Below are positions 9,638-11,887 of a stretch of 63,798 bases of DNA, in pieces (within the stretch, counting starts at the first letter, position 1; each line of letters starts with the position of its first letter). The notes beneath the pieces are model-generated. The model searched no databases. It saw only the letters and a list, made by a program, of their open reading frames with translations, and had not been told where the DNA came from. The position numbers and the translations under genes were made by a program. Location of the stretch: NCBI GenBank assembly GCA_040389165.1, contig JAZKAK010000012.1, positions 1 through 63,798 of the forward strand, in the 5' to 3' direction. Source of the stretch: Pseudomonadota bacterium. Its GTDB lineage: Bacteria > Pseudomonadota > Alphaproteobacteria > Paracaedibacterales > CAIOTO01.

Positions 9638-9797
9638 TTCCATACGTTTGAAACAAGAGATTGGGCGAAAAAAACGTCGCTGTATTCATAAAATTTTAAT
9701 TAAAATAAATATTAATGAAAAATTAACCTCTGCAGTAGCAAGCTTTAACCAGAATACAAATCTTATGTGAAAATCTATTGCTATGCGTAAATACTCG

Positions 9798-9853
9798 GTC
9801 AACAGTCAACAGTCAACAGTCAACAGTCAACAGTCAACAGTCAACAGTCAACG
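9798..9853. repeat. heptanucleotide tandem repeat (GTCAACA) x7 perfect + 1 imperfect
   Basis: Counted directly from the sequence. It lies between ATG 9783 and the autotransporter ATG 9947. Confidence 0.95.
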
Positions 9854-9946
9854 GATTCGCGAAGCCACTCAGAACAGCCTCTTCAAAGGAAGCTTGGTAA
9901 GATCAGCAATGATGCATGGAGGCCGTTATTTGCATGGGCTGTCGTA

Positions 9947-11887
9947 ATGCAGTTAAATTCAGCAAGCGCCGTCCCTGCAACGTATTATAATGCACATGAT
10001 AATGCAGGTGTATGGACATCAACTGACAGTAATGGTAACAATTCAGCAACGATAGGCACACCTGCACTTGGATCTACATTTAACTCAACGAACGGTGGCA
10101 TAACACCTGCCTTAACTGTGAATAATGGTTATGCAGGTTTTAGTAATCATGGCGCCGGCACTGTTACCAATACTATCACTGGCGGAGTAAATATTAGCAA
10201 TGGTGGTTATGCGGATTTTAGTAATTCCGGCACCGGCACAGTGACAAGCACCATCACGGGCGGCATAAATCTTAGCAATGGTTATGCGGATTTTGGTAAT
10301 TACAGCAATGGTACTGCTACCAATACCATCACGGGCGGTATTACAGCTGATAATAGCTATGTGTATATGTATAAAGGAAACACAATTATAAATAATATAG
10401 ACACAATGACTCTCAATAATTCAATATTTTATATTGGGGGAGGCAGTAATAGTAGGACACATATAGATAACCTGAATTGGAATAGTGGAACTTTACGTTT
10501 TTATTTTGCTGATGGTAGTTTTGGCAATACAACAATTGATACATTAAATATTGGAAATGGACCATTAATAATAACTATGAGGACATACAATGGAAATTAT
10601 TCTTATACAAATCCATCTGATTTACACACTGAACAAACTCTTTTCACCGTTGGCACGGTAACTGGCGATCCATCAAATATTACACTTAATAACAACAACC
10701 CCTTTCACGAAGTCATCGCAACCAGCGGTGCACCTAATGGTATAACTGTTTCCCCCAACGGACAAGTAACCGTCACCCTTATTCCAACAGCAACATCCGC
10801 AACGACCAATCATATCGACGCCCTTAGCGCGGCAAGCGATTTACTACCAAGCTTACAAAATACAACCAGCCAAATGACGAATGACTTTGCCCCATCAGCC
10901 TACAAAGTTGCTAAAGCACGTGCAAATATGACCAAGATTATGCGCGAAAATCAGCGTGATTCACTTGAATCACTTATTACCGCACTGGCCAAAGAAGACA
11001 CAGGCACAATCACCAAAATCAGAGGTGATTTTCGTGTGTTTGCCGCACCCTATGTTACACAAATTCGTAACAATGGTATGGGTGGTTATATGGCTGGCTA
11101 TAGCGAAAAATATTATGGGATGTTAGTAGGTGGCAGTCATTATTTCAAAGCAAGCGGAGTCAATCTGCTGGGCATGATTGGGTTTGGCGCGTCGAAAACG
11201 CAACAGGATCGAAGTGTAAACAGCAATACTAACGGCAAAAACTTAATGCTGGGTCTTGATGTGCGAAAAACCTTTGTCGATGCATGGAATATTGGGTGGG
11301 ATTTTGAATCGAACCTCAGTGGTATCGCCGTAAAGAATGTGCAACAACGTCAAGGTAATCCAAGCCCGAGTCAAAGCTACATTGCCGTTTCGCGTTATAA
11401 TACGTATGCTGCGGCCTTTAAAAATGAAATAGGCCCAATCTTTATATTACCACACGGATTTTCAATTAAGCCCGACATTGGATTACAGGTAAATCAATCG
11501 AAACAGACTAAGATCCAAGAACAAAACGCTGGTATTTTCGCACAGAATTACAAAGAAACGATCGCACGTAACGGTGAAATTTATGGCGGCGTTGGTGTGC
11601 GCAAACAATGGAAAGCAGATGGCTTTGAAGGGAAAATTACGCTTAAATACGAAGTCGGCGAAAAATCCGGTAATGGCAAAAGCACATCAACGATTTACAC
11701 AGAAACAACGCCAGGGGGTGTGAATTCAACTGGCACGAAACCTGGCAAGACAACACATTATATCAATCTGTATGGATCCATGCTTGATATGAAAAGCAAT
11801 TGGAAATGTGTTCCTGGCATGACAGTCACACTTCAAAAAGGGCAAAAAAGTATCTCTGGAACGATTAAATTTGAACGTCGATTTTAA
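9947..11887 (+). CDS. autotransporter (type Va) outer membrane protein; 5' end probably extends upstream through the heptamer tract
   Basis: The passenger has repeated TNTITGG(I/V)N(I/L)SNGYADF(S/G)N units. The C-terminal ~270 aa has an alternating beta-strand pattern ending ..GTIKFERRF. The ORF as drawn lacks a signal peptide. Confidence 0.8.
   Translation: MQLNSASAVPATYYNAHDNAGVWTSTDSNGNNSATIGTPALGSTFNSTNGGITPALTVNNGYAGFSNHGAGTVTNTITGGVNISNGGYADFSNSGTGTVTSTITGGINLSNGYADFGNYSNGTATNTITGGITADNSYVYMYKGNTIINNIDTMTLNNSIFYIGGGSNSRTHIDNLNWNSGTLRFYFADGSFGNTTIDTLNIGNGPLIITMRTYNGNYSYTNPSDLHTEQTLFTVGTVTGDPSNITLNNNNPFHEVIATSGAPNGITVSPNGQVTVTLIPTATSATTNHIDALSAASDLLPSLQNTTSQMTNDFAPSAYKVAKARANMTKIMRENQRDSLESLITALAKEDTGTITKIRGDFRVFAAPYVTQIRNNGMGGYMAGYSEKYYGMLVGGSHYFKASGVNLLGMIGFGASKTQQDRSVNSNTNGKNLMLGLDVRKTFVDAWNIGWDFESNLSGIAVKNVQQRQGNPSPSQSYIAVSRYNTYAAAFKNEIGPIFILPHGFSIKPDIGLQVNQSKQTKIQEQNAGIFAQNYKETIARNGEIYGGVGVRKQWKADGFEGKITLKYEVGEKSGNGKSTSTIYTETTPGGVNSTGTKPGKTTHYINLYGSMLDMKSNWKCVPGMTVTLQKGQKSISGTIKFERRF

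Follow-up and report, generated by a model that had tools for sequence, protein, structure and literature searches.

The gene neuO of Escherichia coli K1, which encodes the capsule O-acetyltransferase of the CUS-3 prophage, contains AAGACTC repeats and is translated at full length if the repeat number is divisible by three; the number changes by slipped-strand mispairing, and sequenced genomes often have the gene in an OFF genotype (PMC13001214). We analysed a tract of another heptanucleotide, GTCAACA, on the forward strand of contig JAZKAK010000012.1 (assembly GCA_040389165.1), whose whole length of 63,798 nucleotides is called the window below, and we propose that it is a candidate translational switch of the autotransporter gene that follows it. 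As in neuO, repeats of a 7-nt unit would follow closely on the start codon, inside the 5′ coding region, and the full-length product would be made in one of three repeat-number classes. The two systems differ in that the neuO product is a cytoplasmic enzyme which keeps its repeat peptide, the length of which is reported to affect activity, whereas here the repeat would be in a leader to be cleaved. They also differ in the number of units (3-53 in neuO vs 8 here), the unit sequences are unrelated and the proteins are non-homologous.

Repeats in the leader-encoding part of outer-membrane protein genes are known from Neisseria, where Opa has pentanucleotide repeats, and PilC a poly-G run, in the signal-peptide region. 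The likeness with the present locus is that the mature protein is switched and its sequence is unaltered, with a unit of 5 nt or 1 nt in those genes and of 7 nt here. The Opa repeat encodes the hydrophobic core of the signal peptide, whereas the GTCAACA tract would encode a polar stretch N-terminal to the core, and Opa is an 8-stranded barrel, not an autotransporter. Type Va autotransporters switched by an intragenic simple repeat are NalP and MspA of N. meningitidis, and AutA is a further phase-variable autotransporter of this species. The repeats of these three are homopolymers or tetranucleotides, and no sequence similarity to the protein described here is detectable beyond the barrel fold. 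The genic repeat of opa is CTTCT in 7-21 copies and that of nalP is poly-C in 9-13 copies (PMC5953494).

Heptanucleotide contingency tracts have been reported in Neisseria pglE (PMC7157529) and, as AACAACC, in or near a TonB-dependent receptor gene of Haemophilus influenzae (PMC2651432), the organisms and proteins being different from those considered here. The 7-nt repeats of hmw1A and hmw2A are in promoters and act on transcription, not on the reading frame. In H. influenzae lic1A, a (CAAT)n tract is combined with alternative start codons in different frames; a possible parallel here is the pair ATG 9783 and TTG 9778, which stand in two frames and might set expression to strong, weak or none in the three repeat-number classes, initiation at TTG 9778 being purely a conjecture of ours. 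Finally, the cyanobacterial STRR sequences are 7-bp tandem repeats (PMC2670836). They are multi-copy, mostly intergenic and of unknown function, whereas the tract described here is alphaproteobacterial, single and in a coding context.

The heptanucleotide tract and its reading frames

The tract is made of seven perfect GTCAACA units at 9798-9846, followed by one imperfect unit, GTCAACG, at 9847-9853, and spans 56 nt (9798-9853, + strand). Tandem Repeats Finder (TRF) returned 7.9 copies of a 7-nt unit with 100% match. A two-unit probe, allowing at most one mismatch, gave seven overlapping matches, all inside the tract, and none in 100 dinucleotide-preserving shuffles, and in a census of simple sequence repeats with units of 4-9 nt over the 63.8-kb window nothing outside the tract exceeded three perfect copies. 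For long-unit phase-variable repeats a copy-number cut-off of at least 5 has been used (PMC6321876). The tract, perfect and sharply bounded, with a unit not divisible by three and with 7.9 copies, has the properties of the repeat of a phase-variable gene.

On the + strand the tract is stop-free in all three frames, each of which gives the cyclic peptide VNSQQST. The reverse complement of the unit, TGTTGAC, includes TGA, as is read directly from the sequence, so that tracts of at least three units can be coding on the + strand only. A generic scan of metagenomes for (GTCAACA)n met the same heptamer tract in over 120 unrelated contigs; of 135 tracts of this kind, about 115 are not embedded in long open frames. 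By BLAST, these contigs have nothing but the repeat in common with the window, and most of the tracts are non-coding. We take CAACAGT, a rotation of GTCAACA, to be one of the STRR units, which would fit the many metagenome contigs of ~45% GC with the same tract. Since the heptamer is common in unrelated contigs and mostly outside long open frames, the sequence of the unit is in itself uninformative, and what is specific here, as judged from the surrounding sequence, is its coding context.

Downstream of the tract, an open reading frame (ORF) of 646 aa plus stop extends from ATG 9947 to 11887 (+ strand, frame 2). This is the ORF callable in the sequenced state and, from the ORF call and homologues of 34-59% identity, it would comprise the mature autotransporter with the last 8 residues of its signal peptide. 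The original prediction had described seven perfect and one imperfect unit upstream of this ORF and an open extension of its frame through them, and both were confirmed by the sequence, the former also by TRF. Frame 2 is open for 52 codons 5′ of ATG 9947 (9791-9946), back to a TAA at 9788-9790, with no ATG, GTG or TTG between. This extension, the putative N-terminal part of the leader, has a translation ending in ..KLGKISNDAWRPLFAWAVVMQLNSASAVPATYY, and together with the ORF it makes 698 intact, stop-free codons. As the TAA at 9788-9790 closes the autotransporter frame on its 5′ side, the frame is left without a start codon of its own.

The sole ATG 5′ of the tract, at 9783-9785, is likely to be the true start of the autotransporter. 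It is in frame 0 and, as sequenced, out of frame with the ORF in frame 2; the tract begins 13 nt after it and separates this only canonical start from the region for the predicted signal peptide. Its frame encodes a 54-aa peptide (MRKYSVNSQQSTVNSQQSTVNSQRIREATQNSLFKGSLVRSAMMHGGRYLHGLS) that ends at a TAA at 9945-9947. The original prediction had let this frame stop at 9898-9900, which is wrong: that stop belongs to the frame of a TTG at 9778-9780. The TTG lies in the third frame (frame 1; 9947-9778 = 169 = 1 mod 3) and might be a weak alternative start.

With a unit of 7 nt, the frame moves by one position for every repeat that is added or removed. The arithmetic initially put forward, in which one unit gained or two lost would fuse ATG 9783 to the autotransporter, was reproduced when the unit number was varied in silico. 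With 5, 8 and 11 perfect units, ATG 9783 is joined to ORFs of 696, 703 and 710 aa, and with all other counts the peptides from ATG 9783 are of 29-61 aa (54 aa for 7 units). In this series the repeat is in frame and 3′ of the start, and copy changes switch the frame, which is the behaviour looked for in a phase-variable gene. The ORF is in frame with TTG 9778 if the perfect units number 6, 9 or 12; taking this class together with that of ATG 9783 (5, 8, 11), only the class of 7, 10, ... units has no in-frame start.

The stop of the 54-aa peptide overlaps ATG 9947 as TAATG (9945-9949), which is the classic geometry for termination-reinitiation. As any product from ATG 9947 would have no signal peptide, the V-M codons of the predicted signal peptide probably create this overlap by chance.

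Leader and fold of the predicted autotransporter

We then considered the N-terminus. It had been claimed that a product from ATG 9947 has no signal peptide and that the extension encodes one, which a start at 9947 would bisect; alignment with the signal peptides of homologues and hydropathy are in line with both points. The core of a Sec signal peptide, WRPLFAWAVVMQLNSASA, is predicted at 9917-9970 (+ strand), with cleavage after the Ala encoded by 9968-9970, before VPATYYNA. ATG 9947 corresponds to a Met in the middle of the hydrophobic region of the extension. The best 9-residue Kyte-Doolittle window has a value of 0.86 in the product from ATG 9947, compared to 2.00 for PLFAWAVVM in the extension. 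In the structure model described below, residues 43-55 of the extension are helical, at low confidence.

In the homologues, a conserved (S/T)TYYNA motif is preceded, at 2-5 residues, by the AxA-like site of a hydrophobic signal peptide. The junctions (marked by a slash) read ...LLIWFLALVGILCSFSVYA / TASTTYYAA in homologue P0012, ...LILFLIYMGQLSLS / ASTYYDT in P0007 and ...LLASAAVGLVLGVHSMPVVA / DPTIYYNA in P0002, and at the same position the extension in the window encodes ...NDAWRPLFAWAVVMQLNSASA / VPATYYNA. A seeming exception is P0008, which as called starts MFPTWVSATTYYNA. In its DNA (locus L001), however, an in-frame TTG at 2499, 45 nt upstream of the called start, gives MKKKKLNIPLICCVLMFPTWVSA / TTYYNA; as read from this DNA, the called start is clearly too short and the true start would be upstream, at TTG 2499. 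The same region of L001 (2456-2580) contains no repeat tract; runs of A5 and A6 follow closely on an ATG at 2456, which belongs to another frame, and this arrangement probably does not form a switch. Among the homologues, a start at the position of Met 9947 is not conserved. Hydropathy, together with the alignment with the homologues' signal peptides, places the real N-terminus upstream of ATG 9947: the open extension is predicted to be the signal peptide, and from ATG 9947 the gene would not be able to function.

The leaders of homologues P0003, P0004, P0009 and P0002 are 40-57 aa long, so that the predicted leader of ~62 aa at 8 units, MRKYS(VNSQQST)n..., fits the family. Conserved N-terminal extensions of the MNKIYRLKW type define the autotransporter extended signal peptide region (ESPR), PF13018. 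No Pfam match to ESPR was obtained with the extension, which was searched without its first residues, and the ON-state leader, beginning with MRKYS, is long but motif-free; we regard it as an extended leader and not as an ESPR member.

The protein has no match in Pfam (E up to 10) or NCBIfam, and the profile of its family has none among the PDB sequences. When the extended protein was compared with 5.8 billion protein clusters, 12 proteins were returned, i.e. itself and 11 homologues with 34-59% identity, all 11 from metagenomes or metagenome-assembled genomes (MAGs). Four of the 10 aligned family members, 40-58% identical, contain the autotransporter beta-domain PF03797 (best E 1.3e-14), and one of these four also presents passenger-associated transport (PATR) repeats.

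A structure model was built on the family alignment, with a mean predicted local distance difference test (pLDDT) of 62, i.e. of moderate quality. It shows a passenger (10088-10786, model residues ~100-332) predicted to be a beta-helix of stacked short strands, with block pLDDT values that are mostly 78-94 as far as residue 260 and fall beyond it. TRF and a repeat search found coding repeats, imperfect and 75-78 nt long, inside the passenger at 10124-10353. Low-confidence helices at residues 341-400 form a putative linker between passenger and barrel (10811-10990), and the strands of residues 414-696 (block pLDDT mostly 52-80) a predicted C-terminal 12-stranded beta-barrel translocator (11030-11884), all on the + strand. 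In the Foldseek comparison with the PDB, the 17 best matches are all autotransporter beta-domains, with target-normalised TM-scores up to 0.63; the top ones are AaaA, EstA, NalP, BrkA, EspP and Hbp (E 1e-7 to 1e-4). The protein terminates in ...KFERRF, with an aromatic last residue, and every full-length homologue ends in F or W.

The barrel of a type Va protein is thus found in the PF03797 domain of the homologues, in the 12 modelled strands and in the Foldseek matches, and its passenger and alpha-helical linker are found in the model. These data, together with the C-terminal ...FERRF, lead us to accept the protein as a classical (type Va) autotransporter of a divergent family, as predicted from the model. 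The label of autotransporter first given to it stands on the side of the homologues and of the predicted fold, and not on that of a direct match in Pfam or NCBIfam.

Proposed slipped-strand switching and its alternatives

The features of the tract, of the frames and of the leader point to slipped-strand translational phase variation, with the gene sequenced in the OFF state. We give this reading, a candidate based on sequence architecture, a probability of roughly 0.6. It is the ON/OFF switch of the original prediction, which holds as a candidate: every architecture test run agrees with it. The true start would be ATG 9783, from which a long leader peptide including the GTCAACA units would be made, and a 7-nt unit gained or lost by slipped-strand mispairing in replication would shift the downstream frame by one. 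In the ON state (5, 8 or 11 units), translation would proceed from ATG 9783 through (VNSQQST)n to DSRSHSEQPLQRKLGKISNDAWRPLFAWAVVMQLNSASA / VPATYYNA..., followed by Sec export, cleavage of the leader with its repeat peptide and display of the passenger through the C-terminal barrel. The repeat being confined to the polar stretch at the N-terminus of a leader that would be cleaved, all ON states would give the same mature protein. In the OFF state (7 units), ribosomes from ATG 9783 would make the 54-aa peptide and stop at TAA 9945, and reinitiation at ATG 9947, if any, would yield a protein without signal peptide.

Hypermutability of the tract, use of ATG 9783 and a biological role of the switch are what we infer from this architecture; the role would presumably be the stochastic variation of a surface protein. 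A more specific form, that of a hypermutable contingency locus with three states in a Paracaedibacteraceae-like intracellular symbiont of protists, is conceivable but doubtful. In this form, ATG 9783 at 5, 8 or 11 units would give full expression, TTG 9778 at 6, 9 or 12 units weak expression, and 7 or 10 units would be off, the repeat peptide being discarded with the cleaved leader. No report of phase variation by simple sequence repeats in a Paracaedibacteraceae-like lineage was found in the literature searched.

Several observations weigh against slipped-strand switching. A Shine-Dalgarno (SD)-like motif is missing at ATG 9783, as it is at 21 of the 31 other ORFs of the window, and no sigma-70 consensus or promoter was recognised on the + strand upstream of the gene. 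The hydrophobic region of the extension, at 2.00, is weaker than those of the homologues (2.4-3.1), and over the 31 codons after the tract the codon-usage log-odds are 0.90 for frame 2 vs 2.79 for frame 0, i.e. frame 2 is not favoured. The homologous genes (L001, L002/L004, L007, L008, L009) have no simple repeat at their readable 5′ ends. No second genome or contig of the species covering the tract was found in the protein clusters, the GTDB species genomes or the JGI metagenomes, and the four contigs of the nearest relative, whose RseP is 94% identical, end 105-214 nt upstream of rseP, short of the locus.

As the readable 5′ ends of the homologous genes have no tract, it would be specific to this lineage. 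Orthologues lacking the tract and starting at the equivalent of Met 9947 had been named as evidence that would contradict a switch: the tract is indeed missing in the readable homologues, but that Met is not a conserved start in the family, and the signal peptide precedes TYYNA. No close orthologue was found among the 5.8 billion protein clusters, the scan of GTDB species genomes gave 2 distant loci only, and a locus-specific DNA pattern had no match in the JGI metagenomes. In a relative of 78% identity, DUF1467 and other genes are next to rseP and there is no autotransporter, which indicates that the autotransporter gene is accessory.

This accessory position, at a break of gene order, is one of the points that would suit a fixed pseudogene, in which a one-off change of repeat number, or a start that never worked, has left a decaying gene with an incidental tract. 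The sequenced state without in-frame start codon would agree with it, as would the lack of a close orthologue among the protein clusters, and pseudogenes are common in symbiont lineages. Against this, no stop interrupts the 698 codons, neither the motif of the C-terminal barrel nor the signal-peptide region has been lost, and a change by one unit is enough to bring the gene back into frame. Nor does the tract have the interruptions that are expected to build up once slippage ceases; we consider a pseudogene unlikely. Slightly lower in our estimate is a miscount of units in the assembly, or the representation of one minority or majority path of a mixed population, the gene being in frame and expressed normally in the cell. 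Tandem repeats are a known source of consensus errors and the window is a whole contig from an uncultured organism, but the 56-nt tract is perfect and shorter than ordinary reads; moreover, the switch architecture would remain, and a mixed population would favour phase variation.

Expression that does not depend on the tract seems very unlikely. Initiation at the non-canonical codon ATC 9902 would produce MSNDAWRPLFAWAVVMQLNSASA, a signal peptide whose length is normal, and this codon is preceded by AAGGAAG, AAGGA being the common SD-like motif in the window; its spacing of 11 nt, compared to 6-8 nt for the real genes of the window, led us to judge this start unlikely, and ATC is a very rare bacterial start codon. 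Termination-reinitiation at TAATG 9945-9949 would be served by the overlap of the 54-aa ORF stop with ATG 9947, but the product, predicted to be without hydrophobic region, could not be exported, and Met 9947 is not conserved as a start in the homologues. The proposal that the tract is a non-coding intergenic repeat of the cyanobacterial STRR kind, or a promoter element of the divergent rseP, unrelated to translation of the autotransporter, is a shade more improbable. It can draw on the same heptamer in unrelated metagenome contigs, mostly outside long open frames, and on the TTGAC that each unit includes on the minus strand. However, the tract is present once in the window, 13 nt after an ATG and within the stop-free extension of a long ORF. 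It is also at least 436 nt from the rseP start, and the unit number would not alter the spacing of the nearest TTGAC to any fixed −10 element; a promoter-spacer role was ruled out by this geometry and by the lack of a promoter match in the scan. Programmed −1 ribosomal frameshifting from the frame of ATG 9783 into that of the autotransporter is the least probable of all: frame 2 is, in formal terms, reached from frame 0 by a −1 shift, but the Rfam scan of the intergenic region returned no frameshift element or other RNA family at the locus, and we rejected this mechanism since a slippery X XXY YYZ heptamer is in no register between 9783 and 9947.

Surroundings, source lineage and meaning of the locus

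Upstream of the tract, alignment with the upstream regions of two homologous genes of other organisms (L001 and L002) revealed an AT-rich motif, TTCATAAAATTTTAATTAAAATAAATATTAATG, at 9685-9717 (+ strand), tentatively a promoter or regulatory site. It has the form TTCATAAA(A/T)TTTTA..AAATAAATA and recurs at ~2292-2325 of L001 and ~3878-3911 of L002, and may be, from these sequences, a candidate promoter or regulator site for the autotransporter family. The same intergenic region contains a C8 homopolymer at 9544-9551 and a dispersed repeat of ~100 nt with an internal hairpin (GCCCTGACTTGATCCGGGC) at ~9546-9640. A second copy of this repeat, inverted, is at 18860-18965. The C8 run was considered as a second contingency tract; it is in the dispersed repeat, the other copy of which reads TTTTCCCTCC, and is probably incidental.

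The second copy is upstream of an ORF at 17477-18718 (− strand, 413 aa), in the same orientation relative to the downstream gene. This ORF contains an AvrB_AvrC domain (type III effector avirulence protein; E 1.8e-6, above the Pfam cut-off) and, by its sequence, is a candidate host-targeted effector, unexpected in the lineage. The ~100-nt repeat may be a shared regulatory or mobile sequence ahead of two candidate host-interaction genes.

Other repeats and surface-protein candidates are present in the window. Dispersed palindromic intergenic repeats belong to two families, with cores GTCATCTTCGGACTTGATCCGAAGATC and GTCATTCCCGCGnAGGCGGGAATCC, often with short tandem arrays of 19-24 nt alongside; in appearance they are of the repetitive extragenic palindromic (REP) or miniature inverted-repeat transposable element (MITE) type. 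Their sites are 4440-4565, 26173-26343, 29420-29741, 35895-36052 and 45389-45591, and also 7967-8119, 45085-45144, 49361-49527 and 63398-63502. The large ORFs at 37018-38898 and 32941-35817 (both − strand) have no Pfam match and are rich in in-frame tandem repeats (27 nt x12, 36 nt x12.7, 18-nt units and 189 nt x2). They adjoin an OmpA-like beta-barrel gene at 36042-36827 and are candidate size-variable surface proteins. The ORF at 47135-49165 (− strand) combines NHL with PATR repeats, and a barrel could not be recognised in it. The ORF that comes after it (453 aa, 45681-47042, − strand) begins with 117 nt that are 70% identical to the start of the former. The two possibly represent another autotransporter-like locus, split or duplicated.

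The 3′ end of a tRNA gene (60148-60221) is duplicated in a direct repeat of 54 nt (49615-49668 and 60139-60192, 96% identical), which flanks a segment of ~10.5 kb. This segment encodes a tyrosine integrase and a DUF3987 protein (genes at 49833-50987 and 54238-56535) and is probably a mobile element that has integrated there, with attL and attR.

The best non-self match of AtpA is 93% identical and its best taxon-named match, with 88%, is a 'Candidatus Paracaedibacteraceae bacterium' MAG; the RseP matches indicate the same lineage. The organism would thus be, by sequence comparison, an unsampled, uncultured Paracaedibacteraceae-like alphaproteobacterium, of a lineage of protist symbionts. The contigs of the nearest relative (L130-L133, four independent assemblies) end within ~110 nt of one another, three of them within 18 nt, as could be expected if a multi-copy repeat or a variable region began at that point. 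In the window, the copy of the dispersed repeat at ~9546-9640 is found just past the corresponding position. These ends are probably ordinary assembly breaks at the dispersed repeat, if the relative has the same element, and are uninformative on the tract.

The mechanism that slipped-strand switching would use here is a textbook one, and the value of the finding is in its wider range and in correct annotation, with no new principle. Annotation pipelines mis-start such genes, in this case at ATG 9947, inside the predicted signal peptide. If the tract slips, a clear-cut contingency locus would be present in an organism other than the animal pathogens (Neisseria, Haemophilus, Campylobacter, Helicobacter) usually associated with such loci. 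The switch, if true, would act on a member of an autotransporter family missed by the current Pfam and NCBIfam models in a relative of amoeba symbionts, and the gene would stand out as a probable factor of host interaction. In the three-state form, random variation of surface proteins would be selected in associations of bacteria with protists too, beyond animal pathogens.

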